Assembly (NCBI GenBank): GCA_031373665.1
Contig: JANMMZ010000085.1
Span: forward strand, 1,389-65,388
DNA: 64,000 nt
Direction of reading: 5' to 3'
Origin: Saprospiraceae bacterium
GTDB taxonomy: Bacteria > Bacteroidota > Bacteroidia > Chitinophagales > Saprospiraceae
In this document: positions 1 to 33,016 of the stretch, one piece after another
Numbering within the stretch: position 1 is the stretch's first letter
Layout: every line of letters begins with the position of its first letter
Notes under the pieces: model-generated
What the model was told of the DNA's origin: nothing
What the model saw: the letters and a program-made list of their open reading frames with translations, nothing else
Databases searched by the model: none
Program-made: the position numbers and the translations under genes

Positions 1-985
1 GAAAAGATTGGGCGGTACTGAGGTTGATAAAATTGATGGCTGCCAACAGCAAGATAAAAGCCGCAATGCCCATCAGGCCGTACAAAGTGGGCAAATGTGC
101 CTTGCGCGAATAATTGTCTTGGCAATCCGCATCGAAATGCAAATCGGACAATGGCTGCAAGTCGGGTGTGAAAATAAATTCACCCGTAACATGCGCTTTG
201 GAAAACGCTGGGAATTGTGCCTCGATTTGCCCAAGGCTCGCGTTTTGATCTAATTTTACAAAAGCCTGTGAAGCCGACCAAACATCGTTCCATTGGGTCA
301 GATTGGTTTGATCTTTCAAAAAACTATTGGAAATGGTGCTGTAGGATAGAAAATCGGTGAATGTCAGGTCAGAATGCTGAGTCCAATCGCGCACGATGCC
401 TGCCACGCTCATCCGCAAAGAATCTTGATAAATGACTGTTTTGCCGATACATTCATCTGGCGAAAGATCACCAAAATACTGCTTTGCCTTTTTTTCAGAA
501 AGCACGACTTGGTGCGGCTCAATCAAGGCCGTTTTTGGGTTTCCGGCCAGCCATTCGTACTGAAATATCTTGAAATATTCAGGCTCCGCCAGAACGATTT
601 CGGCGGGGTCAGTATCCATGTTGCGGCGGTCAAACACCTTATTGGGCTTGTCCGTGTTGGGCACAGTGACCGCCGATTCAAAATTGATAAAGGCTGCCAA
701 ATGCTCCAAACCTGAAATTTCCGCCCGCATGGACTTCGGCAAAGCATATGGCACAAAACCTACCTTTTCTTCGTTGGTGTTGGCATCAAATTTCATGCGA
801 CCGACCACGCGATAAATCCGCTCCTTGTCAGGGTGAAAACGGTCAAAACTAAGTTCAAAACTCGTGATGCAATAAATAGCCAAGCACGCACTCACGCCAA
901 GCGTAAGACTCAATAGGTTGATAGCGGTGCTGGTTTTCCGCTTTTGGAGGTTGCGGAATGCGAGTTTGAAATGGTTTTGTAGCAT
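1..985 (-). CDS. ABC-transporter permease, duplicated FtsX/MacB type. N-terminal ~328 codons only; the 3' end lies beyond the window start.
   Basis: Not in the supplied ORF track because it is open at the window edge. My translation of the minus strand from the ATG at 985-983 gives MLQNHFKLAFRNLQKRKTSTAINLLSLTLGVSACLAIY...FDRFHPDKERIYRV...LMGIAAFILLLAAINFINLSTAQ. This is colinear with the N-termini of the full-length paralogues in the window. I saw no in-frame stop down to position 2. Confidence 0.75.
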   Translation of the reverse strand, partial: MLQNHFKLAFRNLQKRKTSTAINLLSLTLGVSACLAIYCITSFELSFDRFHPDKERIYRVVGRMKFDANTNEEKVGFVPYALPKSMRAEISGLEHLAAFINFESAVTVPNTDKPNKVFDRRNMDTDPAEIVLAEPEYFKIFQYEWLAGNPKTALIEPHQVVLSEKKAKQYFGDLSPDECIGKTVIYQDSLRMSVAGIVRDWTQHSDLTFTDFLSYSTISNSFLKDQTNLTQWNDVWSASQAFVKLDQNASLGQIEAQFPAFSKAHVTGEFIFTPDLQPLSDLHFDADCQDNYSRKAHLPTLYGLMGIAAFILLLAAINFINLSTAQSF

Positions 986-1061
986 GAGATATCGTTTTTT
1001 ATGTTTGATTGCTATTTGAAAAATGAATGACCAGAAAGGGCTTATCAGATGACTTCATAGA

Positions 1062-3443
1062 TCATTCGCTCCGCAAACTTTTCACCGGATTGGCCAAAGC
1101 CGCCCTCACACTCTGAAAGCCCACGGTGACCACCGCCACCAAAAAAGTAGTCAGCAAGGAGAGGCTAAAAATGCCAACACCGATAGATATTCGGTATTCA
1201 TAGGTCGCCAGCCAACCGTTCATCGCCCACCAAGCCACAGGGGCGGCCACCAAAAATGCAATAACGATCAGTCGAAGGTATTCTTTGCTAAAAAGCCAAA
1301 GTACCCCACCGACTGTTTCGCCCAAGGATTTTCGGATACCAATTTCTTTGCGTTTGCGAGCAACCATAAAGGCTGAAAGTCCATATAATCCTAGGCAACC
1401 GACAAAAATTGCAATGCCGGCAAAAGTACTTATCAAGCGCATAATCATGGTTTCTGTTTCCAAGAACTCTGCTAATTCTGCTTCCATAAATTTGGATTCA
1501 AAGCAATGGTTGGTATAATTATTTTCCCATATTTCTTTTATTTTAGCCAATGCTAGATTGGGATTACCGGGCTGCAACTCCACGGCACAAGTCGAAAAAC
1601 GCTCCATGTCGCTACCAATAGCAATCGCCGAAATCGGCATCGAAAGACTCCAGTTGTGGAAGTCGCGCACCACGCCAACAATGGGTGCACATACGCCATC
1701 TACACAGGCTTTTTTATTCAGTACTTCTTCTGGTGAAGCGAGGTTAAGTTTTTTTATAAATGTCTCATTGACAAGATATTCCCGGATAGTATCACTAATT
1801 TGAATGTTGCGGCCAGCCACAAGTTGCAGGCCAAATGTCTGCACATAATCGGCATCAGCAGGTTTGGTATTGAGCATCCATTTTTCACCTTCAGGGCGGT
1901 TGTCAAATGTTATACCCGTTTGATTATTGGAGCTGGAGGCAGGTGGCTGAAAGCACAAAGTCACGCTTTTTACCTCTGCTATGGCGGATAATTGTTGTTT
2001 TAGGGTTTTCATATTTGCGGGTTCGGGTACTTCCAGCGTCAGTATCGCGCCGGGTCGGAAACCCCAGTCGGCCTCCTGTGCAAAACGCATTTGAGCAATA
2101 ACGACCGCCGCTCCAATAATAAGCATTTGCGAAATAGCGAATTGAGAAGTCACTAAAACCCGTCGCAAAGAAAAACCGCCTATTTGTTGCGAGTTAATGG
2201 AGCCTTTTAGTGACTCGACCGTGCGGAAGCGTGCTTGCAAGAGGCCCGGATAAAATCCCGCCAAAATCGTAAGCAATACCCCAAGTGTTATTATAAATGG
2301 TACCAATACTTTCATACCCGCAACATCAAATAATAGATCAGTTTTTGTCCATGTATTGAGATACGGTAGTGCGAAAATGCTCAAAAGGCCGCCGATAAAT
2401 AAAGCCACCGTCACAATTATACCCGTCTCGAACATAAATTGCCAAAATAATTGCCCCCGTGTACTGCCCAAGGATTTTCGCACCCCCACTTCGCGCATCC
2501 GACCGAGCGCCTGTGCAGTAGCCATGTTGATAAAATTAACACACGCTGTCACTAGTAAAAACAAACCAATGAGTGCCAATGCCCAAAGGTGTTTTTTAGC
2601 CATTCCAGCACCATAATCTGTATCGAAATGCATCCCTAAAAAGGGTTTTGCTAAGTATTTGAATAAATCCAAACTCTCTGGATGTGGATGTTTTTTATTA
2701 AATTCAAGCAGCGCGCTTTCCAATTCACCGATACCATGACCCGCTCGAAGCAAGGCAAAACAGTAAGTACTGCTATTGATGCCACTCCAACGTTCGAGGC
2801 TGGGAGCATATTCCGGCATGGTATTGCGCGTGCTCCAAGAAACCAATATTTCTTGTGGATAATCGGTTGTTTTAGGTAGATTTTGCAGGATACCGACCAC
2901 GCGTACTTCCACTTTGTTGTCAAACTTGAAAGTCTTACCAATGGGGTCTTCGCTTTTAAAATATTTTAGGGCGATTTGTTCACTCAGAATAGCCGTATTA
3001 GGTTCTTGCATGGCTTGGAGGTCACCACGCAAGAGCGAGTAGTCCAATATTTCAAATATATTGGGCTGGACAAAAGCCATTTTACCACTTTCCCTATACT
3101 TTTCGGCGGTAGAACCGGCTTTAGGGATACTAATGACTACTTCATCCAGACTGGCAATCATCGCAGATTTTTCCACGCACGGCACTTCTGATTGTAAAGT
3201 AGTTGCCATCGGATTGGGTACACCCGGAATTGGAAACACCGTTTCGACATGGACTTCGGTAACAATCCTTGCAATGCGATCTCCCTTAATATGAAAAGTA
3301 TCGAAACTCAAATGATGCCGCAGCAACATGAAAATGAGTATGCATGAAGTGACACTTAGCCCCAACCCCATCACATTTAGCATGGCGTATGTGCTGTTTT
3401 TTCGGACGTTCCGAAGGGCGATGGTGAGGTAATTGGATATCAT
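1062..3443 (-). CDS. ABC-transporter permease, duplicated FtsX/MacB type
   Basis: 793-aa ORF. N-terminus MISNYLTIALRNVRKNSTYAMLNVMGL. Two FtsX-type signatures: MREVGVRKSLGS mid-protein and RKEIGIRKSLGE near the C-terminus. Large non-membrane domains follow TM1 and TM5. C-terminal ANPVKSLRSE. Confidence 0.9.
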   Translation of the reverse strand: MISNYLTIALRNVRKNSTYAMLNVMGLGLSVTSCILIFMLLRHHLSFDTFHIKGDRIARIVTEVHVETVFPIPGVPNPMATTLQSEVPCVEKSAMIASLDEVVISIPKAGSTAEKYRESGKMAFVQPNIFEILDYSLLRGDLQAMQEPNTAILSEQIALKYFKSEDPIGKTFKFDNKVEVRVVGILQNLPKTTDYPQEILVSWSTRNTMPEYAPSLERWSGINSSTYCFALLRAGHGIGELESALLEFNKKHPHPESLDLFKYLAKPFLGMHFDTDYGAGMAKKHLWALALIGLFLLVTACVNFINMATAQALGRMREVGVRKSLGSTRGQLFWQFMFETGIIVTVALFIGGLLSIFALPYLNTWTKTDLLFDVAGMKVLVPFIITLGVLLTILAGFYPGLLQARFRTVESLKGSINSQQIGGFSLRRVLVTSQFAISQMLIIGAAVVIAQMRFAQEADWGFRPGAILTLEVPEPANMKTLKQQLSAIAEVKSVTLCFQPPASSSNNQTGITFDNRPEGEKWMLNTKPADADYVQTFGLQLVAGRNIQISDTIREYLVNETFIKKLNLASPEEVLNKKACVDGVCAPIVGVVRDFHNWSLSMPISAIAIGSDMERFSTCAVELQPGNPNLALAKIKEIWENNYTNHCFESKFMEAELAEFLETETMIMRLISTFAGIAIFVGCLGLYGLSAFMVARKRKEIGIRKSLGETVGGVLWLFSKEYLRLIVIAFLVAAPVAWWAMNGWLATYEYRISIGVGIFSLSLLTTFLVAVVTVGFQSVRAALANPVKSLRSE

Positions 3444-3645
3444 ATTTTTAGATATTTAAACTGAGTTAATTTACTTTGGCTTCAGTGATTAATCCGATAA
3501 GCAAAGTCGGAGAGCCATTTATTCATGAAGTAGTAAGCATAATGATGTTATATTTTTGTTTGATAAATGTACTATCTTATTCAGGCAAGCCTTGAGCCAT
3601 TTATTCAAATAAATGATAATCATTATTTTATAAAATATTTTTTTG

Positions 3646-3971: not shown

Positions 3972-3990
3972 TCATTATTTTCCCAGTTCC

Positions 3991-6504: not shown

Positions 6505-6523
6505 ATTTGTCTGATGTGGGTAT

Positions 6524-7711: not shown

Positions 7712-7822
7712 TTTAGCAATAAATTTGTTGTTAAAAATATTTGACCGCAAAGTTATTGCCAATAATTTATAACAACAAATTTATTGCTAAAAATTATTAT
7801 TATTTTTTGAAACTTAGATTCC

Positions 7823-8029
7823 CTACTCACTCCGCAACGCCCTCACCAGATCCATCAAAGCCGCTCGCACCGCCTGACCACCTACCGTCAAAAACGTAAT
7901 CACCACCGCGATCAAACCCGCCACTACGAACATCCACCATTGAATATCAGTGCGATAGGCAAAATCGGAAAGCCATTGGTTCATAAAATAATACGCAATC
8001 GGCAAAGCGATGACAATAGCGTAAGACCA
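7823..8029 (-). pseudogene. 3' remnant (last ~69 codons) of a duplicated-FtsX permease paralogue
   Basis: Translation is ..AIVIALPIAYYFMNQWLSDFAYRTDIQWWMFVVAGLIAVVITFLTVGGQAVRAALMDLVRALRSE*. This matches the last TM helices and tail of the intact paralogues. The in-frame stop TAG lies at 8032-8030, so no upstream ~730 codons exist. Confidence 0.85.
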
Positions 8030-8057
8030 CTATAAGAAAATTGGTTTGTACGTTATC

Positions 8058-8522: not shown

Positions 8523-8526
8523 TTTT

Positions 8527-9912: not shown

Positions 9913-12324
9913 TTATTCGCTGCGCAGGCTCTTAACTGGATTGGACAACGCCGCTTTCACCGCCTGAAAACCCACCGTCAAAAACGCAATAACCGCCGCC
10001 GCCACACCTACTGCGACGAACACCCACCACGAGATTTCGATGCGATACGCGAAGTCAGCCAGCCATTTGTTCATGAAGTAATAAGCAATCGGAGATGCAA
10101 TGACAATGGCGACAATAACCAATTTCAAAAAATCTTTGGCCAAAAGACTTGTGATACCCGCTACCGAGGCGCCGAGTACTTTACGGATGCCGATTTCCTT
10201 CGTCCGTTGTCCAATTACAAATGCTGACAAAGCCAGTAATCCCAAGCAAGCGATGCAAATAGATAACAATGTGGCAAAAAGTAGGGCTTGCGCAAGCCGA
10301 TTTTCGCTTTCGTATATCTGTGCAAAATGCTCATCCATAAATGTGTAGTCAAACGGACGGTCTTTCACATGCCGCATCCAAACCTCCCGTGACTGGCTCA
10401 AAACCGCTTGCATATTGGCCGCGCCGACCTTCATCGAAATCACCGACGACACCTGTGAGGCTTGCATACAAATCGGTGAAATGGCGTGTCGCAGCGTATT
10501 GTGGTGCATATCGCGGATAATGCCGACTACTCGGCCAGGGGTGCTTTGGCCAAAAGTGGCACGCATGATTTCTTTGCCGATAGGGTCGTCCTTCCAGCCC
10601 ATTTTTTTTACAAACGCCTCATTTACAATGTATTCTGTCTCGTTTAATGCGCCTTCGTACGTGGGTGCCCGACCTGCCACAAATTGCATCCCGTACAAAC
10701 CGAAGTAATTGTGGTCGGCTCGGATAATGCTCATCGGGTGGTTTTCCCATTGACGGGTTTCGGGATTGCGCACCATCAAACCGTTTTGGCGGTCAATGGT
10801 GCCGAGCGATTGGTCGCTGCTGCTGACCGCTTCGACCCCGGGGATGGCCGCAAGTTCCGTTTTCAGGGCGGTTGCGTGCATCCAATTGCCGTTGCCGATG
10901 TCCATTTCCACGACCTGCGCAAAACTAAAACCCAAGTCTTTGTTTTTCAAAAAACTCAATTGCTGATAACAAATCAGCGAGCCTAACATCAATATCCCCG
11001 ACAAGGCAAATTGCACCACCACAAGGTTTTGAATGAATGGGCGTTTCAGCGAAACGGCTGTCCTGTGCTGCTGAAAGGTTTGTGTAACACCATGTCGGGC
11101 AGCTTGAATGGCAGGGTAAATGCCTGACAATAGACCGAGCAAAATAACTATCGCAGCAAACCCCAACAACACTTCTGTTGGGAAAGGCAAATCAACATCG
11201 CGCCCGAGCAGGCTCAAAAAAGGCTTGCGGATCAGGGTTGCCCAAAGCAAACCCAATGCGCCCGCTAACACTGTCATCATCAAGGATTCGCTCAAAAAAT
11301 TGCCCATAATATCGCCGCGTGATGCGCCGAGCGAGCGGCGAACCCCTACTTCTCGCCCTCGTTTTAGGGCTAATACAGTGGATAAATTAGCAAAATTGAT
11401 GCTGCTGATAAGCAAGATGAACAAGGCCAACAAGCCAAGCACACCCACGTACGCCCGATTGGAGCGAAGGTGGTTGTTTTCGTCCTCTAGGTGCATCGAA
11501 CCGAGGTGAATATCGGCAAAGGGCTGCATGGAGAGCGCGATCATTTCCGAGTTGGGCATTTCTTTTTTCAACAATTCGGCAAAAACAGGCTCTAAGGCGG
11601 CTCCATTTTGCACCGAAGGGTGGCATTGGAAATAAGTGGACGACACCACGCCATGCCAACGCGAACCGACATCCCAAGCGTCAAATCGCTGTGCATCAAG
11701 TGGAAATAAGGCATCAAATTGCAAGTGGCTGTTGGCTGGTAAATCCTTCAAAACACCCGAAACCGTGAAAAAAATCGTCGTGTCCTGACCCGAAGGCAGG
11801 GTAAAAGTGTTTTCCACGATTTTGCCGAGCGGCATTTCTGTGCCGAACAAAGCCACGCTGACCGGGAGGGTCAACAGAATGTTTTCAGGCCGTGCAAAAA
11901 CCGTTGAGGGGTCGCCCAATTGGAGCGCGTAATTGAAAAAGGAAAAAAATGAAGTATCCACTTCTAGGCACTTTTGAAGCGTCGTTTCGCGGCTGCCACT
12001 ACGGCAGAGAATGTTTTCGCTTGAAGGGAGCACCCGCAAAAAACGCTCGATGTCACCACATTCCCGGTGTAAAAAAGGCCCCATCATCGCCGATGAAAGC
12101 GCGTGGGTGCTTTCTGGCGAATTGGGATATTTGAAGGCCGTATTCAAGCGGTACAGGCTCGGATGAGCCGGGTTTATTCGGTCAAAATTGAATTCAAAAT
12201 GCAGATACACGCCGATCAACACACAAATGGCAAGGCTGACTGACAGCCCGAAAATGTTGATGGCCGAAAAATTGGCGTTTTTCCAGAGATTTCGGAAGAT
12301 GAGTTTTATTTTATGTATATACAT
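9913..12324 (-). CDS. ABC-transporter permease, duplicated FtsX/MacB type
   Basis: 803 aa. N-terminus MYIHKIKLIFRNLWKNANFSAINIFGL. Signatures GREVGVRRSLGAS and TKEIGIRKVLGAS. Ends SNPVKSLRSE. Confidence 0.9.
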   Translation of the reverse strand: MYIHKIKLIFRNLWKNANFSAINIFGLSVSLAICVLIGVYLHFEFNFDRINPAHPSLYRLNTAFKYPNSPESTHALSSAMMGPFLHRECGDIERFLRVLPSSENILCRSGSRETTLQKCLEVDTSFFSFFNYALQLGDPSTVFARPENILLTLPVSVALFGTEMPLGKIVENTFTLPSGQDTTIFFTVSGVLKDLPANSHLQFDALFPLDAQRFDAWDVGSRWHGVVSSTYFQCHPSVQNGAALEPVFAELLKKEMPNSEMIALSMQPFADIHLGSMHLEDENNHLRSNRAYVGVLGLLALFILLISSINFANLSTVLALKRGREVGVRRSLGASRGDIMGNFLSESLMMTVLAGALGLLWATLIRKPFLSLLGRDVDLPFPTEVLLGFAAIVILLGLLSGIYPAIQAARHGVTQTFQQHRTAVSLKRPFIQNLVVVQFALSGILMLGSLICYQQLSFLKNKDLGFSFAQVVEMDIGNGNWMHATALKTELAAIPGVEAVSSSDQSLGTIDRQNGLMVRNPETRQWENHPMSIIRADHNYFGLYGMQFVAGRAPTYEGALNETEYIVNEAFVKKMGWKDDPIGKEIMRATFGQSTPGRVVGIIRDMHHNTLRHAISPICMQASQVSSVISMKVGAANMQAVLSQSREVWMRHVKDRPFDYTFMDEHFAQIYESENRLAQALLFATLLSICIACLGLLALSAFVIGQRTKEIGIRKVLGASVAGITSLLAKDFLKLVIVAIVIASPIAYYFMNKWLADFAYRIEISWWVFVAVGVAAAVIAFLTVGFQAVKAALSNPVKSLRSE

Positions 12325-17276: not shown

Positions 17277-17305
17277 AATTTTATATTTATATTTTTTTAA
17301 ATGTG

Positions 17306-22389: not shown

Positions 22390-22393
22390 AACT

Positions 22394-24829
22394 TTATTCA
22401 GATTTTAAAGATTTGGCTGGATTGGCTAGTGCGGCCTTCATGGCCTGTCCACCAACTGTTACCAGTGCGATGATCATTGCTGCCGCGCCTGCTGCTGCAA
22501 ACATCCACCAAGCAATGTCAATGCGGTAGGTGAAATCAGAGAGCCATTTTTGCATGGCCCACCACGCCAAAGGCGTAGCCAATGTTAAGGCGATCAAAGC
22601 CAACTTCAAGAAATCGAGGGTCAAAAGCCCCGTAATACTCGCTATAGATGCGCCCAGCACTTTTCGAATCCCAATTTCTTTGGTCTTGGCCTCCACCACA
22701 AATACCGTCAGGCCGATCAGCCCCAATGCATTGATGAGTAGGGCCAATAAGGCTACCAGTTTGAAAATAGAAAAGACGCGCCTTTCTTCCTGATAAAGGC
22801 TGACAAGAAATTCATCTAAGAAAGAAGCAGTGAACAAGTCGGCGGGGAAAATAGTTTTCCAAGCCGATTCTATTTTTGAGAGCGTTGCGGTATTGGCCGC
22901 CGCAGGGTCGAGGCGAATACCCAAGGAGTTTTTGAAATTGTGGAGGGGTAATATCGCCACCGATTGAAGCGGGCTGCGCAACGATTGGGTATGGAAATCG
23001 CGCACAACGCCTACGATGGTCGCTACAATTCCGTTGGCTCCAGTTTTTACCGGATTGCCTATGGCGAGTGCAGTGGTCGTATAACCGAGGTTTTTTACAG
23101 CGGTTTCATTCAGTACACATACGTATTTACGTGCATCTTTGGCTACTGATTCCGCTGCTTGTGCCATATCGGCATCGGTCAAAAAACGACCATCCACCAG
23201 TTCTAAACCGTAGGTTTCGAGGTATTGTGGATCGGCAACTTTCATGGCTACTTCCAATTTCTGTTGTTCGTATAGTTCTGGGCGATTGAATCTGGTTGTA
23301 AATCCAGACCGAGAAGTGGGCGCCCCAATGCAATAAGTAGTGGTCTGTACACCCGAAATACGGGCTACTTCAGAGCGAAACGCAGAGATTTGTTCAGGTT
23401 TTGCCTCTGGTAAACGGAGATTCACCACACCTTCTTTATTAAATCCAAGTGGTTTGGAGCGGATGAATTGCATTTGCATGGCCGCCACGATCACCGCTAC
23501 TATAAACACTTGTGCCACCATGAATTGGAAAGCCACCAAACTCCGACGTAGGATCAGAGAATTGCCCATGCCTTTAGTGGAAAGTTTTCCGCGAAAGGCT
23601 TCTACCGGACTAAAACCCGCTAATACAAAGGCTGGGTAGAATCCTGCTGCCAACGTAGTGAGCAAACAAAGCGCAGCCATGAATCCCAGCATTTGGGGTG
23701 ACAACCAATCCGATACAATGTGTTTGTCCAAAAAATTATTAAGGACAGGGAGTATTAAATGGGCTGCAATAGCCGAAAAAGCGGCAGCACCTGCCACCAA
23801 TACAAAGGTTTCAAACCAGAAACGCAGTGCTAACTGAGCCCTACTTGCACCGAGGGTTTTGCGTACGCCTACTTCGCGGGCTTTGCGCTGGGCAATGGCC
23901 GTAGCCAAGTTTACGTAGTTGACCACCGCAATCAGCAACAAGAATAAGGTAATGGCTCCAATCCAATAAAACTGCTCAAAATCGGCGGTATAAGTGGCAT
24001 TGCCATCGGCATAATCCAAGTTGGTATGAATATCAGCCAGTGGTTGAAGGGTATAAGTGTATTTGCTGGGATCCTCTTTGTCTTTGCGAGTATTGGCTAG
24101 GTTCGTGATTCGCTCGCCGATTTGGGCAGCATCCATCTTGGCGCCTGTTTTTACATACAAAAATTGTCCACTCATAAACCACCCCCAACTAGCATCAGGA
24201 TTGGGTGTTCGAGAAGCCGCCGATATAAGCATATTGAATGGCAAATGTGAATTGGCTGGTGCATCGGCCATGATACCCACTACTTCAAACTCCTTTACCA
24301 GACAATCCTCCAATTCGAGGATGATTTGCTTGCCGATAGGGTCTTCTTTTAGAAAATACTTGGCAGCCGTGGTTTCGGTCAGCATCACCACATTGGGCTG
24401 GGTAAGTGCCGTACGCGCATTTCCTTTTTTAGTTTCAAAATGAAATAAATCAAAAAACGCGGTATCCACAAAAACCAAGTCTTTTTCCGTGAAAAATTGG
24501 GTGGCTGATAGCCGCACCAATGCTTGATCAGAGTAAATAACTTCGGCAAATTGGCCATTTTCTCCCAATTCTGCCTTTGCAACCGAAGGCATTATCGTAG
24601 CCCCTTGGGCAAATTTGTCTATTTCTCCATTGGGGCTATCCATCCGTGTTACAACTCGAAAAATCCGCTCGCCATCAGGGTGAAAATCATCAAAACTACG
24701 CTCATGAAAAACCATAAGCCCAATCAGTAAACTGATGGTGAGTGCTACAGATAAGCCTACAAAATTGAGTGCAGCGAAGCCTTTTTGACGGCTCAGGCTG
24801 CGGAATGTATTTTTTAGTAACTCTTTCAT
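22394..24829 (-). CDS. ABC-transporter permease, duplicated FtsX/MacB type
   Basis: Start set at the ATG at 24829 (MKELLKNTFRSLSRQKGFAALNFVGL), because the track start at 24847 is a GTG. Signatures AREVGVRKTLGAS and TKEIGIRKVLGAS. Ends ANPAKSLKSE. Confidence 0.9.
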   Translation of the reverse strand: MKELLKNTFRSLSRQKGFAALNFVGLSVALTISLLIGLMVFHERSFDDFHPDGERIFRVVTRMDSPNGEIDKFAQGATIMPSVAKAELGENGQFAEVIYSDQALVRLSATQFFTEKDLVFVDTAFFDLFHFETKKGNARTALTQPNVVMLTETTAAKYFLKEDPIGKQIILELEDCLVKEFEVVGIMADAPANSHLPFNMLISAASRTPNPDASWGWFMSGQFLYVKTGAKMDAAQIGERITNLANTRKDKEDPSKYTYTLQPLADIHTNLDYADGNATYTADFEQFYWIGAITLFLLLIAVVNYVNLATAIAQRKAREVGVRKTLGASRAQLALRFWFETFVLVAGAAAFSAIAAHLILPVLNNFLDKHIVSDWLSPQMLGFMAALCLLTTLAAGFYPAFVLAGFSPVEAFRGKLSTKGMGNSLILRRSLVAFQFMVAQVFIVAVIVAAMQMQFIRSKPLGFNKEGVVNLRLPEAKPEQISAFRSEVARISGVQTTTYCIGAPTSRSGFTTRFNRPELYEQQKLEVAMKVADPQYLETYGLELVDGRFLTDADMAQAAESVAKDARKYVCVLNETAVKNLGYTTTALAIGNPVKTGANGIVATIVGVVRDFHTQSLRSPLQSVAILPLHNFKNSLGIRLDPAAANTATLSKIESAWKTIFPADLFTASFLDEFLVSLYQEERRVFSIFKLVALLALLINALGLIGLTVFVVEAKTKEIGIRKVLGASIASITGLLTLDFLKLALIALTLATPLAWWAMQKWLSDFTYRIDIAWWMFAAAGAAAMIIALVTVGGQAMKAALANPAKSLKSE

Positions 24830-24843
24830 GTTTGTTGTTTTTA

Positions 24844-25470
24844 TCACTTGTTATCTTGTTGTTTATTGTTCAAGGCTGGGTCTGACCATCCAAATTTTAA
24901 GGTAAGCATACCAAATGCTCCTGACAATTTTTGATTGTTTAAATCGGCCAACTGGACATCGGTCACGGCACGGTACCCGCCTTCTAAGGACAGGTGAAAC
25001 CATCGGTATAAATTCAACTCAATGCCAACACTAGGGCTGGCAATGAATAACCTGTCTTTGCCAATGTCATTCATTTTGACGCGACCAATGCCCAAATCTA
25101 GCTCAATAATGGGGTGTACTACTCGGTGCGCAGCCAGCATATAACCCAATTGGAGCGAATGCCACCGCAGTTTGATATTTTGCACTTTTTGTTCAAACCG
25201 ATAAGGCACATCATTGGATACCCAATTGAAATTATACCCCGCGATGAACTTGCGTTCATACTCGCCTATAAAAGTAAAACTTGAAATCCGCGCCTCTTGA
25301 TCCGCAATATTTCCTGCCTGCAACCGGTATCCACCCCAACCGCCACTACTTTTCAATTTTCGGGTACCGAACAGTGTTTTTTCACTTTGGGCAGAACAAA
25401 CGCCTGCGTACAAAAACATCATTAAAAATAAGGTTGCCGAATGTCGGGCAAAAGTTTGAATTAATCGCAT
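24844..25470 (-). CDS. Small outer-membrane beta-barrel-like protein with a signal peptide
   Basis: 208 aa. Signal ATLFLMMFLYAGVCSAQ. Alternating hydrophobic beta-strand pattern with aromatic residues, and a C-terminal strand MLTLKFGW. It ends ~14 nt upstream of the next permease start. Confidence 0.5.
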   Translation of the reverse strand: MRLIQTFARHSATLFLMMFLYAGVCSAQSEKTLFGTRKLKSSGGWGGYRLQAGNIADQEARISSFTFIGEYERKFIAGYNFNWVSNDVPYRFEQKVQNIKLRWHSLQLGYMLAAHRVVHPIIELDLGIGRVKMNDIGKDRLFIASPSVGIELNLYRWFHLSLEGGYRAVTDVQLADLNNQKLSGAFGMLTLKFGWSDPALNNKQQDNK

Positions 25471-25506
25471 ATTATTATTTATTTTTATTATAAAATATCT
25501 TTTTTG

Positions 25507-27915
25507 TTACTCTGAGCGAAGCGACCTGATTGGATTATCCACCGCTGCTTTATAGGTCACAACGCCGACAATCACAGCCGTCAGAACAAACGTAAGAATA
25601 CCGATAATAAGCATCATGAAATATTGAATGTCAACTTGATATGCAAAATTACTTAGCCAAGTATTTGTAACGTACAGAGCAATTGGTATGCTTATAATCA
25701 TGGCAATACTCACCATATAAATGTATTCTTTTGTTAAAATCTGGATAATAGAAAAAGGCGATGCGCCGAGAACTTTGCGGATGCCTATTTCTTTGATGCG
25801 TGCCACCGTCAAAAATAGCGTGATGCCAATGATGCCTAAAGAAGCCAAAAAGACAGCAATGATGTTGAAGTAGAGCAAAAGATGCGCTGTACGCTGGTCT
25901 TGAGTATATAATTTTGCTAAATTTTCGTCCAAAAATTCTATATCCAACGGCGTGGTTTGATTGAGTTCCGCATGAATGGCACTGATATTTTTGACCACGT
26001 TAGCCGTATTCTTTGCATCAAATAAAACAATGCTGCGCCCGTCCATACGTACCCTTTCGGATACGGTGATAAAATAAGGCTCAATTTTATTGTGCAATGA
26101 AAACAGATTAATGTCTTCAAATATGCCCGCTATGGTGAAAGGTACGCCAACCTGACCTGTTGCTGCATTGGTGTATTCTGGCTCGGTGATGATGGTTGTG
26201 CCAATCAATTTATCGGCGGAAACGCCCTTGGTTTTTGCCAACTTTTCAGCCGCCGTCCGATTGATGAGCGTTGTGGCAGTAGTCGTGGGCGCGTTTAAAG
26301 TTGTTTTTAAATCATAGGCTTTTACGCCTTCATAATCGAGATATAATTGGTTGGCATCGTCGAAAACGACATCTATTCCTTCCATTTTGTACGTCATTTG
26401 GTTAAACGGTTCGATACCAAAAGTTGAACCGTTCCCAACCGCTTTTATTTCGGGAATTTGACGCAATTTTTCTTGAAAAACAGCTTGGCTTTCTTCGGTT
26501 GTGTAGGCGTATAAAATCCCGTTTTTTCGGAATCCAATATTTTTATTATCAATAAAATTGATTTGCTGATGGATAAAATAAGAAATCGAAGTAATGGAAA
26601 TGAGTATGACAAATTGACTGGCAACCAAGTATCGTCGAATTGGAAAACGTTGAAAATTATTGCTTTTTAAGCCTTCTTTAAACAGCGTAACCGTATCTTT
26701 TTTTGATAAATAGAAAGCAGGGAAAAGGCTCGCCAACGTACCAACCGATACGGCCAACACAAAGAGCAACAGAAACGTTTGTGGATTAGCCAAAACGTTT
26801 GCGCTGATGTCGGTTGCCATAAATGTATTGAAAAAAGGCATTAATACGTGTATCAGTACCGCCGTTATGGGCAAAGCAATCAAGGATAGCAAGACACTTT
26901 CGACAATAAATTGAGCCGTAATGCCCGAACTTTTAGCCCCAATAACTTTTCTAATGCCAATGGTTTTACTTTGTTTTGATTTAATTGCAAGCGTTAAATT
27001 GGCATAATTGAATAAAGTAATGAGCGTGATAAACAAAGCAAAAAAACCGATGAGCGTGATGTACAGACTATTACCGGTCGGTTTTAGTTCATATAACACA
27101 TTTTCTCTGAAATGAATATTGGCGATCGGTTGTAAAGAATGTTTTTTATACAAAACATCTTTGGCAACTTTTGGATTGAACGCTGCGAAAGCAATATTCA
27201 ATTGATTTTCAACGGTTTGTACATCACTGACTTTATCTTTTTGTACGTACACATGACAGCCCCAATAATTGATTGTAGGATTATTCAACGCGACACTAAA
27301 ATCAAAATTGGCATTTAGGGGAACGTCTTCAATGATGGCAGCTACCGCATAATCTTCTCCCCCAATTTTCACCAATTTATTAATCGCCGTACCGTTATTA
27401 AGTCCGTCTTTACCGTACAATTTTTCCGCTACGGAAGCCGTCAAAAGGGCTTTTTTTGTTCCTTCGCCAAAATTTTTAAAACTGCCGTGCTTCAATGTCC
27501 ACGTAAACATGGCGGTAAAAGCGGTGGGTGTATTGGTCGTCAATACATCTTTTACCTCAATTTTTTTATCGTCTGACTGAATAAACGCCACCGTTGGCGA
27601 CACCACAAACTGAACCACCTCCTTGACACCCGTTGCAGATTTGAAGGCTTGGGCTTGCCGAGCCTGTTCATCAGCATTTAGTCCTGACCCTGGGAAGCCA
27701 ATTATACTGTAATCCTGAGAGCGGTACGTCCACTCAACCCGATAAATATTGTCCGAATTTTGGTGAAACTTATCGTAGCTCCATTCGAATCCGATGTAAC
27801 TAATAGCCGTATAGGCCACAAAAAGACCAATTACCAAACTGGTCAGATTTAGCAACGTAAACGTGCGGTTTCTAAGGTATCCCCGTAGGATCATCTTCAA
27901 ACTGTTCGCAATCAT
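25507..27915 (-). CDS. ABC-transporter permease, duplicated FtsX/MacB type (most divergent member)
   Basis: 802 aa. N-terminus MIANSLKMILRGYLRNRTFTLLNLTSL. Signatures SKTIGIRKVIGAK and IKEIGIRKVLGAS. Ends DNPIRSLRSE. Confidence 0.9.
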   Translation of the reverse strand: MIANSLKMILRGYLRNRTFTLLNLTSLVIGLFVAYTAISYIGFEWSYDKFHQNSDNIYRVEWTYRSQDYSIIGFPGSGLNADEQARQAQAFKSATGVKEVVQFVVSPTVAFIQSDDKKIEVKDVLTTNTPTAFTAMFTWTLKHGSFKNFGEGTKKALLTASVAEKLYGKDGLNNGTAINKLVKIGGEDYAVAAIIEDVPLNANFDFSVALNNPTINYWGCHVYVQKDKVSDVQTVENQLNIAFAAFNPKVAKDVLYKKHSLQPIANIHFRENVLYELKPTGNSLYITLIGFFALFITLITLFNYANLTLAIKSKQSKTIGIRKVIGAKSSGITAQFIVESVLLSLIALPITAVLIHVLMPFFNTFMATDISANVLANPQTFLLLFVLAVSVGTLASLFPAFYLSKKDTVTLFKEGLKSNNFQRFPIRRYLVASQFVILISITSISYFIHQQINFIDNKNIGFRKNGILYAYTTEESQAVFQEKLRQIPEIKAVGNGSTFGIEPFNQMTYKMEGIDVVFDDANQLYLDYEGVKAYDLKTTLNAPTTTATTLINRTAAEKLAKTKGVSADKLIGTTIITEPEYTNAATGQVGVPFTIAGIFEDINLFSLHNKIEPYFITVSERVRMDGRSIVLFDAKNTANVVKNISAIHAELNQTTPLDIEFLDENLAKLYTQDQRTAHLLLYFNIIAVFLASLGIIGITLFLTVARIKEIGIRKVLGASPFSIIQILTKEYIYMVSIAMIISIPIALYVTNTWLSNFAYQVDIQYFMMLIIGILTFVLTAVIVGVVTYKAAVDNPIRSLRSE

Positions 27916-28004
27916 TATTCTATTTTATTTGTGCATCCAATACATTATAAATCAAATGCTTGTGGATAAAATTTAATCTTTTCTTACAAAATACGAAGGG
28001 GGTA

Positions 28005-30407
28005 TCATTCACTCCTGAGTGATTTCACTGGATTCACCAAAGCCGCCTTCACCGACTGGAAACCTACGGTCAAAAATGCGATCAATACCGCCACCAAACC
28101 TGCGATGGCAAACATCCACCACTCCACTTCAATGCGATAGGCAAAATCAGCCAGCCACTTATCCATTAAATAATAGGCAATCGGAGAAGCGATGACAATG
28201 GCGATGACCACGAGTTTCAAAAAATCCTTAGCAAGCATACCCGTAATACCCGCGACCGAGGCTCCGAGTACTTTTCGGATGCCGATTTCTTTGGTGCGTT
28301 GCCGCGTGGTATAGGTAGCCAGCCCAAATAGCCCGATACCGGCAATGAAAACTGCCAGCAGGGCAAATAAAGTGGCTATACTGCCCGATTGCTGTTCGGT
28401 GCGATACATTTCGTCAAACTCTTGATCAAGAAACTCATAGTTGAAAGGACGATGAGGCGCCACCTTTTTCCACGTGCTTTCGATACTGCTCAGGGTGGCT
28501 TGTATGTCGTCGCCATTAAATTTGATGAGCAATTTATTCACCTCCTGATCGGTAAGGAATAGGGCCAGTGGGCCAATGTTTTCGTGCAATGAAGCGATAT
28601 GGAAATCTTTGCTGACTCCCTTCACCGTGCCGTCTCTCCCGTTGAGGCTCAACCGCTTACCAATAGCCATTTGGGGTGTCCAGCCCAGTGTTTTCGCTGC
28701 TGACTCATTGATGATGAAGCAATAACGTCGTAGTTCTGCACTGTCCATAGCAATCTGAGCGATGTCTGATTCGACAAAGTCTTGCCCCGCTACCAGTTGG
28801 ATGCCCAGTGTTTTGATATAGTCATAGTCTGTACCCACCGCGCTGATGCCCAACTGAAAGTCTTCGGGTTTGCCCTCTGCCCACACACTGTAGCCTCCCT
28901 TTACCAAGGTGGGGGTCTCGGAGCCTGCCGCCACCTGTTGGATTCGGGAGTCAGATTTTAACTCATTTTTGATGCTGGTAAGGTTTTTTCTCACTATCCG
29001 ATCCATGGGTAGTACCACGACTCGCTCTTTGTCGTAGCCCAATTTTCGGTTTTGGATATAGGTCATCTGTTGGTTGATGACGAAGGTGCCAATAAACAAT
29101 AGGATGGATACTACAAACTGAAACACCACCAAGCCTCGACGGAGACCGCCTCCGCTTCCGGTGGTTTTAAAATTGCCTTTTAGTACTTTCACTGGTTGAA
29201 AATTGGACAGCACAAAGGCCGGATATCCGCCTGCAAGAAGGCTGACCACTACACCTAGACCCAGAAATCCAGCCAGTGCAAGGGGGCTTTCCATAAAAAC
29301 AAAACTGAGATCACGTCCACTCAATCTGCTGAAAGCAGGGAGCAATAAGAAGGTGGTCAGTGAAGCGAGTGCCAAGGCAATGCTGGTAAAAAAGACTGAT
29401 TCGCCAATGAATTGCCGCACCAATTGTCCACGGAAGGCGCCCACTACTTTGCGGATACCTGTTTCGCTGGCTCGCTCAATGGCTTGCGCAGTGGTCAAGT
29501 TGATGTAGTTGATACAGGCAATCAGTAAGATCAGGAGTGCAATAGCCGAAAAAATATAGAGGTACTGGATATCATTACCCGGCTCCAGCCCACCTGCTAC
29601 GCGGGCCTTTAGGTGTACTTCGCGCATGGGTTGCAACACGTAAGTAAGATAACTGCCTGCCGTAAAATCACCCTTCATCACTTGAGCCATATGGTCTTTG
29701 ATTTTGGCTTCTATCGGTACCGCTGCCATCGGATCGGTGAGCAGTAGGTAGGTATAAAAATTGGCCGAACCCCAAATGTGCTCGCGCCAGTTTTCCAAGG
29801 TATGGAATGAAGCCACAAAGTCGAACTTGATTTGCGAGTTTTGGGGTGGATCGGCTACCACGCCACTCACTGTCAGGTCAGTGCTGGCTCCCAACCGCAA
29901 AGTCTTGCCCATCGGGTCTTCTTTACCAAAATACTGGTTGGCCATCTGCTCAGTCAGTACCACGGTGTTCATCTGATCGAGCATCGTACGCGGGTCACCT
30001 TTGATTACTTTGAAAGAAAAGATGTCAAAAAATGTTGAATCTGCCCATAAAAAGCCTTTTTCTTCCCGTGCCTCGTCATGATACCGCAGCACCGCAGGTG
30101 AAAAATCTGAAGTGCTATAAATCCGAACACCCGACTCCACTTCGGGAAAAACTCGCTTAAATTCAGGATAAGCGGCAGTGGGAGTCGTGCTAAATTCGGA
30201 GGTCTCTCCACTATCTTGAACCAGTGTGGTTAGCCTGAAAATTCGGTCGCCTTGCTGTTGGAAGCCATCGTAACTCAACTCGGACACCACATAAGTAGCG
30301 ATGAGCATAAAACAAGCCAACCCAACGCTCAGGCCAGCGATATTGATGAATGCGTACATCTTATTTCGTCGCATCCGTCGCATCATAGTGCGAAAAAAAA
30401 TGGCCAT
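28005..30407 (-). CDS. ABC-transporter permease, duplicated FtsX/MacB type
   Basis: The track start at 30425 is a TTG. ATGs occur at 30416 and 30407, and 30407 (MAIFFRTMMRRMRRNKMYAFINIAGL) aligns best with the paralogue N-termini. Signatures ASETGIRKVVGAF and TKEIGIRKVLGAS. Ends VNPVKSLRSE. Confidence 0.85.
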   Translation of the reverse strand: MAIFFRTMMRRMRRNKMYAFINIAGLSVGLACFMLIATYVVSELSYDGFQQQGDRIFRLTTLVQDSGETSEFSTTPTAAYPEFKRVFPEVESGVRIYSTSDFSPAVLRYHDEAREEKGFLWADSTFFDIFSFKVIKGDPRTMLDQMNTVVLTEQMANQYFGKEDPMGKTLRLGASTDLTVSGVVADPPQNSQIKFDFVASFHTLENWREHIWGSANFYTYLLLTDPMAAVPIEAKIKDHMAQVMKGDFTAGSYLTYVLQPMREVHLKARVAGGLEPGNDIQYLYIFSAIALLILLIACINYINLTTAQAIERASETGIRKVVGAFRGQLVRQFIGESVFFTSIALALASLTTFLLLPAFSRLSGRDLSFVFMESPLALAGFLGLGVVVSLLAGGYPAFVLSNFQPVKVLKGNFKTTGSGGGLRRGLVVFQFVVSILLFIGTFVINQQMTYIQNRKLGYDKERVVVLPMDRIVRKNLTSIKNELKSDSRIQQVAAGSETPTLVKGGYSVWAEGKPEDFQLGISAVGTDYDYIKTLGIQLVAGQDFVESDIAQIAMDSAELRRYCFIINESAAKTLGWTPQMAIGKRLSLNGRDGTVKGVSKDFHIASLHENIGPLALFLTDQEVNKLLIKFNGDDIQATLSSIESTWKKVAPHRPFNYEFLDQEFDEMYRTEQQSGSIATLFALLAVFIAGIGLFGLATYTTRQRTKEIGIRKVLGASVAGITGMLAKDFLKLVVIAIVIASPIAYYLMDKWLADFAYRIEVEWWMFAIAGLVAVLIAFLTVGFQSVKAALVNPVKSLRSE

Positions 30408-30458
30408 TTCATACATATACAACAAGTTTATTTTTTAATAAATATAGACATCGGCAAA

Positions 30459-30556
30459 TCACTCGCTGCGCAGGCTCTTCATCCCGAAGGAAAATCGGGA
30501 TTCCATCACTCACTTCGGAGTGATTTTATCCCGAAGAAAAATCGGGATTTCGTGCC
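30459..30556 (-). repeat. Two conserved hairpins, each followed by a vestigial KSLRSE-stop coding end (site D)
   Basis: Hairpins at 30528-30548 (loop agaaaaa) and 30481-30501 (loop aggaaaa). The minus strand reads TAA ggcacgaa HAIRPIN a AAA TCA CTC CGA AGT GAG TGA tgga HAIRPIN g AAG AGC CTG CGC AGC GAG TGA. Confidence 0.9.
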
Positions 30557-33016
30557 TTATTCGCTGCGCAGGCTCTTAACTGGATTGGCCAAAGCCGCTT
30601 TCACCGACTGGAAACCTACTGTCAAAAACGCAATCAATACCGCTGCCAAGCCAGCCACTGCGAATATCCACCACGAAATATCAATCCGATAAGCGAAGTC
30701 GGCAAGCCAATTATTCATAAAGTAATAAGCAATTGGCGAAGCAATTAGGATCGCAATGACAACTAATTGTAGGAAATCTTTGGCCAAAAGCCCCGTGATG
30801 CCCGCAATAGATGCACCTAGTACCTTTCGGATGCCTATTTCTTTGATTCGCTGCTCCGCAGCATAGGTAGCCAGACCAAACAAGCCAATGCAAGCGATGA
30901 AAATCGCCGCTATTGCCGCCCAAATCAACATGGCTTCACGGCGGGCATCTTCGGTATAAAAAAGAGCCAATTGCTGGTCGAGGTAATGGTATTCAAACAG
31001 TTCATCAGGATCAATTTTTGCTAAAATACCTTCCATCGCTTTTATGGTGGTGGCAGCGTCTTTTGATTCGATTCTTGAAGTATAATAATCAATGTTTTGA
31101 ACGGGATTTTGCCGATACGCCAAGACCAAAGGGGCAATTTTTTCTCTTAATGTCTGAAAATTGAAATCTTTTACTATCCCAATCACCCGGGCTTTAAATG
31201 CCTGATTGCCACGAAGCGGGACATACGTTCCGCCGTATGATGCAGCCGGAATTTCAATCAATTGATCAGATGGCTCTGTGATATTTAGGAGTTTGGCCGC
31301 CGTTTCATTTAATAAAACAGAGGAAGTATCGCCCAAACCGCTGAAATTTTTGCCTTTCAATAATTCTACCTCAAAGGTATTGGAAAAATGCTCATCCACG
31401 CCTAACAAATATGAAACTTTCTGTTCATCAGGATAGCCCATTTGCCTTATTTTAACACTGGGAATATTTTTCCATTCACCTGGCACCCGTGAAGTAGTGG
31501 ATACATTTTTTACATTGGGTATTTTTTCAAATTCTGAAACGATGGTGGAGGCTGCTCTTCTTATCGTGCCACTGTTGATATCCACGACCACCAAAAGGTC
31601 TTTATTGAACCCCAAATCTTTGCTGTTGACGAAACGAACTTGCAAAAACATCACGATGGTTGCAATGATCATAAATACAGATACCGAAAATTGGAAAACA
31701 ACCAAGCCTTTTCGCAAAGAAAAACCTGATTTGTCTTGAATTTTTAGACTTTTCAATAACATATTAGGGCTAAATTGGGAAAGCATCAATGCTGGATAAG
31801 AGCCTGATAATATACCTGTCAAGATAGCCACACTAAATGATGCAACCCAAATCCTATAATCGGTTGAAAAACCAAGTGAGAGTTGTTTGTTGGTAAATTC
31901 ATTGAAAAACGGGATCATTAAATTGACCAATAAAATAGCCAAAACAAAAGAAAATAGCGTTACCAATACTGATTCTACCAGAAATTGTGTTACCAATTGC
32001 CCTTTAAATGCACCCACAACCTTTTTTATCCCAATCTCTTTGCTGCGATTGGAGGCTTTAGCAGTAGTGAGATTCATATAGTTGATACAAGCAATCATCA
32101 ATACAAAAAGAGCGACCAACGCAAATATTTTCACGTACAAAAGATACCCTGTGCCGGCTCCCAATTGATTGAAGTTTCTGGCACCATCCGTAATGCTTTC
32201 GGAATGAAGGTGAACATCTTTGAGTGGCTGAAGGCTATAGGCCAATGATACACCCAGTGCTGGCTTATAGTTGGCATTGACCAATTGCCCTAGTTTTTGT
32301 GAAACAGCGACAAGGTTGGCATCTTTTCGGAGCAGCGTATAAACGGAATATTCGCTTGAGCCCCAATCGCTATTCACCTCATTTACATAACTGGAATCAG
32401 CATAATAGGTGCTTTCGGAATAAACAGAACTAAAATCAAAACTTGAATTCCGAGGATGATTTTTAAGCACTGCGGTAACAGTAAATGGTTGTTCATAGCC
32501 TTGCCATTTCAACGTCTTTCCGGCTACTTGTGTACTGCCAAAAAGTTGAAGGGCCAACGCTTCCACAATGACAATGGAGTTGGGAGCCGTCAAAGCCGTT
32601 TTGGGATTACCATCAAGGGCTTCAAAATCAAATATCTCCATTAAACCATTGTTGGCAACCGTGATTTCTTCATTCACTTTTTTCTGATCTGCCAAGTTTT
32701 CAAGCATATCTCTACCCCCTTGTGCCATGCGGGCTGTATTTTCAATTTCTCCAATACTGATTTTCGATGCTTCCGCCAGTTTGTAACTTGCTCCTGCTAT
32801 TTTAACATCCTCATCGGGTGATTTTCTGTGCTTGATAACACGGCATATTCGATCAGCATTGGTATGATGACTGTCGTAGGTAATCTCATCAATGACGTAA
32901 AGGCCTAATATCAAAAAACAGGCAAGACCGAAGGTCAGGCCAGCGATGTTTAGCACTGCGTGGAGTTTGTTTCTGAAGAGATTTCGGACAGCGATTTTTA
33001 GATAATTGGATACCAT
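30557..33016 (-). CDS. ABC-transporter permease, duplicated FtsX/MacB type (first gene of the array in transcription direction)
   Basis: Start set at the ATG at 33016 (MVSNYLKIAVRNLFRNKLHAVLNIAGL). Signatures SKEIGIKKVVGAF and IKEIGIRKVLGAS. Ends ANPVKSLRSE. Confidence 0.9.
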   Translation of the reverse strand: MVSNYLKIAVRNLFRNKLHAVLNIAGLTFGLACFLILGLYVIDEITYDSHHTNADRICRVIKHRKSPDEDVKIAGASYKLAEASKISIGEIENTARMAQGGRDMLENLADQKKVNEEITVANNGLMEIFDFEALDGNPKTALTAPNSIVIVEALALQLFGSTQVAGKTLKWQGYEQPFTVTAVLKNHPRNSSFDFSSVYSESTYYADSSYVNEVNSDWGSSEYSVYTLLRKDANLVAVSQKLGQLVNANYKPALGVSLAYSLQPLKDVHLHSESITDGARNFNQLGAGTGYLLYVKIFALVALFVLMIACINYMNLTTAKASNRSKEIGIKKVVGAFKGQLVTQFLVESVLVTLFSFVLAILLVNLMIPFFNEFTNKQLSLGFSTDYRIWVASFSVAILTGILSGSYPALMLSQFSPNMLLKSLKIQDKSGFSLRKGLVVFQFSVSVFMIIATIVMFLQVRFVNSKDLGFNKDLLVVVDINSGTIRRAASTIVSEFEKIPNVKNVSTTSRVPGEWKNIPSVKIRQMGYPDEQKVSYLLGVDEHFSNTFEVELLKGKNFSGLGDTSSVLLNETAAKLLNITEPSDQLIEIPAASYGGTYVPLRGNQAFKARVIGIVKDFNFQTLREKIAPLVLAYRQNPVQNIDYYTSRIESKDAATTIKAMEGILAKIDPDELFEYHYLDQQLALFYTEDARREAMLIWAAIAAIFIACIGLFGLATYAAEQRIKEIGIRKVLGASIAGITGLLAKDFLQLVVIAILIASPIAYYFMNNWLADFAYRIDISWWIFAVAGLAAVLIAFLTVGFQSVKAALANPVKSLRSE

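Follow-up and report, generated by a model that had tools for sequence, protein, structure and literature searches.

Duplicated FtsX permeases of about 800 amino acids (aa), which combine two FtsX domains and two MacB-type periplasmic domains and are encoded in large paralogous same-strand arrays, are known as ADOP (acidobacterial duplicated orphan permeases). The usual companion of acidobacterial ADOP is a PadR gene (TIGRFAMs description). Arrays of this type and their layout are already in print: Psychroflexus torquis carries a 42-kb cluster of ten ADOP paralogs and other transporter genes, abundantly translated, for which efflux was suggested in 2014 (PMC3914696), and Dyadobacter genomes are reported to have 28-33 ADOP copies (PMC11573002). 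Our literature search returned annotation-level mentions only and no experimental study of a multi-permease system. Here, we describe a stretch of 64,000 nucleotides (nt) from a Saprospiraceae bacterium (assembly GCA_031373665.1, contig JANMMZ010000085.1, here C10), which we call the window. It holds the greater part of a supercluster of 14 genes encoding fused-dimer type VII (MacB-superfamily) ATP-binding cassette (ABC) permeases of an ADOP-like Bacteroidota clade. From sequence and comparative evidence, we consider it likely that the array copies are exchangeable membrane modules served in trans by one chassis, an adaptor and two ATPases (NBD1 and NBD2) encoded on another contig, C71. The complete detachment of chassis and permeases is particular to this genome and makes it a useful test case.

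MacAB-TolC (5NIK, 5GKO, 5LIL; PMC5985334) resembles the system described here in its FtsX unit of four transmembrane (TM) helices, TM1 and TM2 flanking a large periplasmic domain, a coupling helix (putative here) behind TM2, an HlyD-family adaptor, an ATPase of the same clade and, presumably, mechanotransmission. MacB, however, works as a homodimer whose N-terminal ATPase is fused, with a single permease in each pump, whereas here both halves form one chain, two kinds of separate ATPase occur, and 27 permeases stand against one chassis. Escherichia coli YbbAP-TesA (9GE6/9GE7; PMC12646458) also pairs a separate ATPase with a fused-dimer type VII permease that has two periplasmic domains, but YbbP has 10 TM helices with two linker helices, against 8 in our model of one family member (14% identity), and it is a single gene beside its ATPase, which forms a homodimer and has no adaptor. 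A review of MacB covers YbbP and BceB fusions and not this 8-TM form (PMC5985334). The darobactin exporter DarBCD likewise joins a duplicated FtsX permease (DarB) to a separate ATPase (DarD) and an adaptor; unlike the system here, it has one permease and one ATPase and sits inside a biosynthetic cluster, while the array is without a radical-SAM or precursor gene. A single ATPase module serving many unlinked specificity components is found in group II ECF transporters (one EcfAA'T, many S components) and in MsmX/MsiK systems, although these are importers of unrelated folds. To our knowledge, a shared energizer has been demonstrated for no type VII exporter.

A supercluster of fused-dimer permeases

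The window covers bases 1389-65388 of C10, a 65,491-bp contig in a genome of 6.0 Mb and 138 contigs. The minus strand of window positions 1-33,049 carries 10 complete permease open reading frames (ORFs) of 792-819 codons and one copy cut by the edge, 11 in all. Copy A (2..985) contributes 328 N-terminal codons with a MacB_PCD match before the gene runs on into contig C46, and B (1062..3443; 793 aa) has two FtsX domains and MacB_PCD. They are followed by C (9913..12324; 803 aa), D (12424..14829; 801 aa), E (14898..17276; 792 aa from the ATG at 17276, in a frame open to 17426), F (17404..19839; 811 aa), whose structure we modeled, and G (19966..22389; 807 aa). H (22394..24847), 4 nt upstream of G, has 817 aa from a GTG or 811 aa from the ATG at 24829. 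I (25507..27915; 802 aa) is the most divergent, with 21-29% identity to the other copies; J (28005..30425) has 806 aa from a TTG and a probable ATG start at 30407; and K (30557..33016), the first gene of the array, has 819 aa from the ATG at 33016 in a frame open to 33049. Neighboring copies are 4 nt (22390-22393) to 146 nt apart.

The first 135 bases of C10 match the last 135 bases of C46 exactly, and a 31-mer from this overlap is absent from all other contigs. Joining the two completes copy A (809 aa, tail NPVKSLRSE) and adds three further same-strand permeases about 8 kb downstream of A (C46 12596-20343), which brings the supercluster to 14 copies within approximately 49 kb. A profile built from the window copies identified 27 full-length family members across 12 contigs of the genome. 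None of the 27 adjoins an ABC ATPase gene, and searches with ABC_tran and HlyD_3 gave zero matches on C10 and on the adjoining C46.

A first-pass annotation, made from the letters of the window, had described a twelve-member same-strand array with one 3' remnant and no ABC ATPase or membrane-fusion gene. The minus-strand array is real but has 11 members, ten complete and one edge-cut; the count of twelve does not hold. The 905-aa and 412-aa ORFs within its range encode a STAND/TPR NTPase and an AAA ATPase, and there are two remnants (7826-8020 and 3488-3538). Its gap range agrees with our measurements, and the N-terminal helix it noted is common to the array copies, as is the NPVKSLRSE-type tail, with the variants NPVESLRSE (F and G), NPAKSLKSE (H) and NPIRSLRSE (I). 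ABC ATPase and membrane-fusion genes are indeed absent from the array, and a cognate ATPase just beyond the window, which would have refuted orphan status, was found on neither C10 nor C46.

Each complete copy has two Pfam FtsX domains, and MacB_PCD is detected in 10 of the 11 copies; in copy I it falls below the Pfam threshold, yet the protein aligns along its full length. In the seven copies tested, the best NCBIfam model was ADOP (TIGR03434), with alignments mostly near full length and scores of 171-311 bits against a cut-off of 622.3, which a single protein passed across 151 genomes of the phylum. DarB (NF038008) came next, at 61-140 bits against an equivalog cut-off of 700. By these profile scores the permeases are a clade sister to ADOP and not strict ADOP. 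They do show the ADOP trait of a large duplicated-permease family without an adjacent ATPase (27 copies), but their companions differ: an adaptor, two ATPases and a sigma-54 regulator on another contig, while the array leaves no room for a PadR-type gene. The closest named homologs come from Saprospiraceae metagenome bins.

An AlphaFold2 model of F (44-sequence alignment, pLDDT 80.8, pTM 0.73) shows an N-terminal amphipathic helix, eight TM helices (4+4), a short cytoplasmic linker (residues 414-428) and two beta-rich periplasmic domains. Its boundaries are TM1 at 17-45, periplasmic domain 1 at 46-291, TM2-4 at 292-413, TM5 at 429-465, periplasmic domain 2 at 466-670 and TM6-8 at 671-801. The top Foldseek match is E. 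coli YbbAP (9GE6; E 6e-20, sequence identity 14%), and the Porphyromonas gingivalis permease domain 3IS6, from structural genomics, reaches a TM-score of 0.77-0.80 on the target. Further matches include MacB (5GKO/5LIL/5NIK), LolCDE, BceAB, YtrEF and HrtBA, with a probability of 1.00 for MacB, LolCDE, YbbAP, BceAB and HrtBA. The copies are thus type VII ABC (MacB-superfamily) permeases, made of 4-TM FtsX units with a large periplasmic domain between their first two TM helices. A motif, E-[IV]-G-[IV]-R-K-x-L-G, recurs in nearly all 27 copies, once in the TM2-TM3 loop and again in the TM6-TM7 loop. The major coupling helix of MacB occupies the position after TM2 (PMC5985334), and by this position the motif loops may be coupling helices in contact with an ATPase.

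An adaptor and two ATPases on another contig

The candidate chassis lies on the minus strand of C71, where an HlyD-family adaptor gene (26747-27991; HlyD_3 and HlyD_D23 matches) stands directly upstream of the NBD1 ATPase gene (25976-26653), with the NBD2 ATPase gene (25066-25755) beyond it and a gene for a sigma-54-dependent response regulator (28243-29646) divergent from the adaptor gene. Both ATPases have DarD (NF038007) as their best match, at 239-275 bits against a cut-off of 375; as with DarB and the permeases, these scores are far below the cut-offs. C71 has no FtsX match and no permease or permease remnant, including in the 25 kb downstream of the module, so the genome holds one chassis without a permease and 27 permeases without a chassis. 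The module resembles sister-species proteins that head permease operons, with identities of 88-93% for NBD1, 87-90% for NBD2 and 77-82% for the adaptor.

In relatives, the two parts are joined. A genome of the same genus (G008) encodes a histidine kinase and a sigma-54 response regulator, then, divergently, adaptor, NBD1, NBD2 and four permeases, followed by one opposite-strand gene and four more permeases, with gaps of 29-170 nt within runs. Similar heads, an adaptor-NBD module followed by permease arrays, occur in G007, G005, G006 and G002. The adaptor is directly upstream of NBD1 also in G005, G007, G008 and Niastella. Niastella koreensis, from a different family, has the order adaptor, NBD1, four permeases, NBD2 and an outer-membrane channel gene (OEP); its NBD1 shares 69% and its NBD2 65% identity with the C71 counterparts, and the best match to its OEP in our genome is 29% identical. 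We also considered a TolC for the gene that follows the G008 array, which by eye looks like a dipeptidase.

The ATPases and permeases also co-occur. Within the genus, eight other genomes have a close NBD1 (at least 70% identity), each with 7 to more than 22 duplicated permeases, while nine of the ten genomes without one also have no full-length duplicated permease (one of them is only 68% complete). In an even sample of 151 Bacteroidota genomes, NBD1 orthologs were found in 39, all 39 of which have ADOP-like permeases, and 97 genomes have neither. NBD2 is present in 33 genomes, 32 of which also have NBD1. Whatever the permease number, which reached 108 first-look candidates in one genome of this survey, NBD1 is single-copy in 38 of 39 genomes and NBD2 in 33 of 33. 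Among the other 38 genomes with NBD1, at least 27 place a permease on the same strand no more than 10 kb downstream of it, and at least 16 no more than 200 nt; among the matches listed, NBD2 usually closes the array or lies inside it. Because related genomes are not independent, we give no P value for the co-occurrence. About half of the genus is without the whole system, and the NBD1 studied here is 74-80% identical to proteins from other families or classes against 70-71% to those of same-genus G002 and G005, a distribution that suggests an accessory and horizontally moved system.

The first-pass annotation had called the permeases orphans and supposed that a single trans-encoded ATPase might serve the whole battery. 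"Orphan" describes the linkage in this genome and not the family, whose module is in cis in relatives; a likely partner in trans can indeed be named, but it comprises two different ATPases and an adaptor. Few paralogous families in soil and freshwater Bacteroidota, Acidobacteriota and Verrucomicrobiota are as large as the ADOP-like permeases, and the comparative evidence names partners for them: one adaptor and two distinct ATPases, each single-copy. The label thereby becomes a hypothesis open to test, that of one motor shared by exchangeable permeases, although its practical value is modest because the layout, a common one, had already been noticed in print.

NBD1 and NBD2 share approximately 51% identity, and both preserve Walker A, the H-loop and the glutamate of Walker B. 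NBD1 retains LSGGQQQR and GNLDS, as do the MacB-like and LolD-like ATPases, while NBD2 orthologs from five genomes have the non-canonical signature LSGGQQQL and a D-loop GNL[Q/H/N]S. Two conserved, single-copy and unlike ATPases alongside a permease with two unlike halves suggest that NBD1 and NBD2 probably form a heterodimer matching those halves. We know of no characterized type VII ABC system with an ATPase heterodimer, and our literature search also found none.

Five further members of the MacB/LolD/FtsE clade bring the genome's total to seven. Two of them (on C62 and C132) are each beside a single-FtsX permease, the one on C132 matching the MacB ATPase domain best; the others are LolD-like (C71), FtsE-like (C131) and YbbA-like (C78) by best match. 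One of these, LolD-, YbbA- or MacB-like, or several of them promiscuously, might power the array, in which case the C71 module would be a decayed operon stripped of its permeases. The number of such ATPases, the separation of the YbbA-like one from its YbbP-like permease and the lack of a permease in the C71 operon are in keeping with this reading. Against it, NBD1, NBD2 and the adaptor are intact and 77-93% identical to the heads of sister-species permease operons, the other ATPases either have their own single-FtsX permease or best match LolD, FtsE or YbbA, and only NBD1 and NBD2 track these permeases across the phylum. We therefore regard substitution by other ATPases as very improbable. 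As for the YbbAP-like pair, the YbbP-like fused permease (C87 48702-51224; 840 aa, 10 TM helices assumed by eye from its likeness to YbbP) and the YbbA-like ATPase (C78 31659-32357) are on different contigs, and this second type VII system thus also appears to be unlinked.

Gene content, fold, motifs, a chassis without permeases, cis linkage in relatives and phyletic co-occurrence are the observed basis for a chassis shared by the array copies; from them we infer what the substrates are like, that the chassis is physically shared, that the two ATPases pair as a heterodimer and that export runs through an outer-membrane channel. On its own, each permease chain would supply the whole membrane half of a pump (4 TM + 4 TM, with two periplasmic Porter/Sabre-type domains). 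The copies would dock in turn, as alternative substrate-specific modules, on a single trans chassis from C71 made of the HlyD-type periplasmic adaptor, NBD1 and NBD2, and an unlinked TolC-type outer-membrane channel would complete the pump. Cytoplasmic ATP hydrolysis could be relayed through the long TM helices to the periplasmic domains by mechanotransmission, as in MacB, with substrates expelled or extracted from the periplasm or from the outer leaflet of the inner membrane. Specificity would lie in the diverged periplasmic domains, and the conserved last three helices and tail may provide a common docking surface.

The same machinery might instead work by ATPase-driven mechanotransmission without TolC-coupled efflux: it would extract a lipid, a lipoprotein or a hydrophobic compound, or activate or feed a periplasmic partner enzyme (cf. 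LolCDE-LolA, FtsEX-EnvC, YbbAP-TesA). The best structural match, YbbAP (9GE6), extracts hydrophobic compounds and passes them to TesA (PMC12646458), the Psychroflexus ADOP cluster includes an acyl-CoA thioesterase gene (PMC3914696), no outer-membrane channel gene is linked to the array or the chassis here, and small unrelated genes occur within arrays, such as the 208-aa ORF at 24844-25470 and a DUF2911/TPR gene in Spirosoma. The conserved chassis, however, always comes with an HlyD-type adaptor, and in Niastella also with OEP, the signature of a tripartite efflux pump, and no conserved periplasmic partner gene accompanies the arrays. We find this alternative unlikely.

Several observations weigh against a shared chassis. 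It lies at least 25 kb from every permease in this genome, which leaves co-regulation a supposition, and none of the approximately 10 OEP genes is on C10, C46 or C71. The five other MacB-clade ATPases could in principle substitute for NBD1 and NBD2. One genome of the same genus (G004; 93% complete, 360 contigs) has eight permeases and no close NBD1, and 15 of the 151 phylum genomes have one or two weaker permease matches and no NBD1. The first FtsX half, which should also dock an ATPase, is far less conserved than the second, and the docking-surface idea does not explain this on its own. Regulation offers no link either: the window has six one-mismatch matches to the sigma-54 pattern against 5.8 expected, none of them before a permease start, copy B is preceded, at 156 nt, only by a weak sigma-54-like match, and the Bacteroidota -7 motif TAnnTTTG was found within 200 nt upstream of none of the array genes.

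A scan for sigma-70 promoters gave no excess. Across the 27 permease starts, three sigma-54 matches lie within 300 nt (B, C64 and C116) against 0.44 expected. Near-consensus motifs (TGGCATAGAGATTGC and TGGCACATCAATTGT) lie 26-37 nt before the starts of the singleton permeases on C64 (upstream of 30938) and C116 (upstream of 52917), which is suggestive of sigma-54 control for these two singletons only. Two TGGCAC boxes lie upstream of the C71 adaptor gene.

Ancient copies with a conserved 3' end

Pairwise identity within the array is 21-43%. Averaged over the 11 copies at the boundaries of the F model, it is 34% in TM1, 22% in periplasmic domain 1, 35% in TM2-4, 31% in the linker and TM5, 23% in periplasmic domain 2 and 54% in TM6-8. 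The extracytoplasmic parts had been noted at first pass as strongly divergent, and they are the most divergent, with 22-23% identity against 54% in TM6-8.

We placed the array copies in a tree with copies from sister genomes, Niastella and Spirosoma. No two array members are sisters, and most pair with a gene of another genome, in several cases one from another order: C and G with G007, K with G005, D with Spirosoma, and H and E with G008, as sisters of its operon members. B belongs to a clade that also includes copies from G007 and G008, one of them a G008 operon member. F pairs with a C46 copy within a clade of Niastella and Spirosoma genes that includes Niastella permease 4, and the G008 operon members belong to the wider clade around F; the sample contains no close partner for A, I or J. 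F is approximately 50% identical to proteins of Niastella, Spirosoma and Mucilaginibacter, and gene order within permease arrays differs between species. The lack of sister pairs and the pairings across genomes make the array a collection of ancient lineages and not a recent tandem expansion. Recent tandem duplication is likewise excluded at the DNA level, where similarity between copies is limited to the 3' end. G+C content varies strongly from copy to copy, from about 0.40 to 0.50 in 2-kb windows over positions 1-33000, which fits old or separately acquired paralogs.

Synonymous sites are saturated between paralogs and even between the closest orthologs (pS, the proportion of differing synonymous sites, 0.68-1.0), so that dN/dS is not measurable and only dN can be compared. 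In the closest pair, F and its counterpart in G015 (75% identity), dN rises from 0.08 in TM6-8 to 0.20 in TM2-4 and 0.21-0.24 in the periplasmic domains, next to 0.10 for NBD1 between the same two genomes. This pattern indicates purifying selection throughout, and no arms race, as far as substitution counts for this pair can tell. The resistance or immunity repertoire proposed at first pass, if it meant rapid diversification, finds no support here: there are no sister pairs, and dN in the F-G015 pair is 0.08-0.24 against saturated dS. Without sister genes and with low dN, the diversity of the array is old and conserved.

These values also bear on whether the permeases need a motor. They might act without an ATPase, as a bank of sensors or scaffolds, or be unused relics that have drifted since linkage to a motor was lost. 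The lack of a cis ATPase, the two truncated remnants, which show that copies can be lost, and the absence of a recognized promoter motif before array genes all agree with this reading. Yet 11 of 11 copies are open over 790-820 codons, both putative coupling-helix motifs are retained, the dN of the closest ortholog pair against saturated dS is that of purifying selection, homologs of approximately 50% identity are kept across orders, and the Psychroflexus ADOP cluster is abundantly translated (PMC3914696). A motorless or decaying array is in our judgment very improbable.

DNA similarity between paralogs is confined to the last 340-450 nt and up to approximately 90 nt downstream, with 72-88% identity. 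For most pairs, pS in this 3' segment is 0.67-0.71, near saturation, so the high protein identity there stems mainly from constraint. It is lower for the neighbors F and G (0.39), for two neighboring genes on C7 (0.47) and for F and the C46 copy (0.54), in each case clearly below the value for the remainder of the gene, a sign of past gene conversion between these sequences. As the sole cause of the conserved 3' domain, gene conversion is ruled out by the near-saturated majority.

Family-specific hairpins of the form ATCCCGA-N7-TCGGGAT lie behind several stop codons on the minus strand: two behind F (17328-17348 and 17375-17395), two behind K (30481-30501 and 30528-30548), and one each behind C (9884-9904) and G (19937-19957). 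At F and K, the doubled hairpin is interleaved with vestigial KSLRSE-stop codings. Genome-wide, eight of nine occurrences are within 80 nt downstream of a permease stop. The hairpin could mark an RNA end, a recombination scar or a terminator; a scan of the intergenic gaps detected no intrinsic terminator, and the ATCCCGA hairpins are not canonical ones. We dropped an integron-like cassette reading because the genes are all paralogs and an integrase is missing. A further short hairpin, with compensatory variants (TCGCT/AGCGA, TCACT/AGTGA), consists of the SLRSE codons themselves.

A wider version of the shared chassis, on which we are evenly divided, would have all 27 fused permeases served by the one unlinked chassis of one adaptor and an asymmetric NBD1/NBD2 heterodimer, would place an ECF-like modular class among type VII exporters, and would make the C-terminal three-helix "handle" and the 3' hairpin a docking/recombination unit.

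Inserts, remnants and flanking genes

Four non-permease genes (3991-9771, minus strand), which are not pump parts, interrupt the array: a STAND/TPR NTPase (3991-6708; the 905-aa ORF), an AAA ATPase (AAA-ATPase_like, 6524-7762; the 412-aa ORF), a Lumazine_bd_2 protein (8058-8555) and an aspartyl-protease-like protein (8527-9771). The TPR part of the STAND-like NTPase includes a 96-nt tandem repeat in five copies (4313-4984). The two P-loop NTPase genes (3991-7762) are co-directional and have a permease remnant on each side. One remnant (7826..8020, minus strand) is a 3' fragment of 65 codons with 74% identity to F residues 747-811, ends in ALRSE-stop and has an in-frame stop upstream; the other (3488..3538, minus strand) is a C-terminal piece of 17 codons, AYYFMNKWLSDFAYRIN. 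Because the larger remnant sits within the span of the insert, there must have been more than one insertion.

The 208-aa ORF (24844..25470, minus strand) between I and H shares 4 nt with the GTG start of H and has no Pfam or NCBIfam family match. Its start is signal-peptide-like, and it is the sole non-permease gene between 9.9 and 33 kb. An 18-pair hairpin with a T-run at 33362-33400, between K and a divergent gene at 33567, is the only strong terminator-like site near the array. Type I restriction-modification genes, HsdM (34998-36659) and HsdS (37081-38532), lie directly upstream of the array on the opposite strand, with a Fic/DOC gene (38545-39336) beside them; G+C in this region is 31-37%, against 40-50% in the array.

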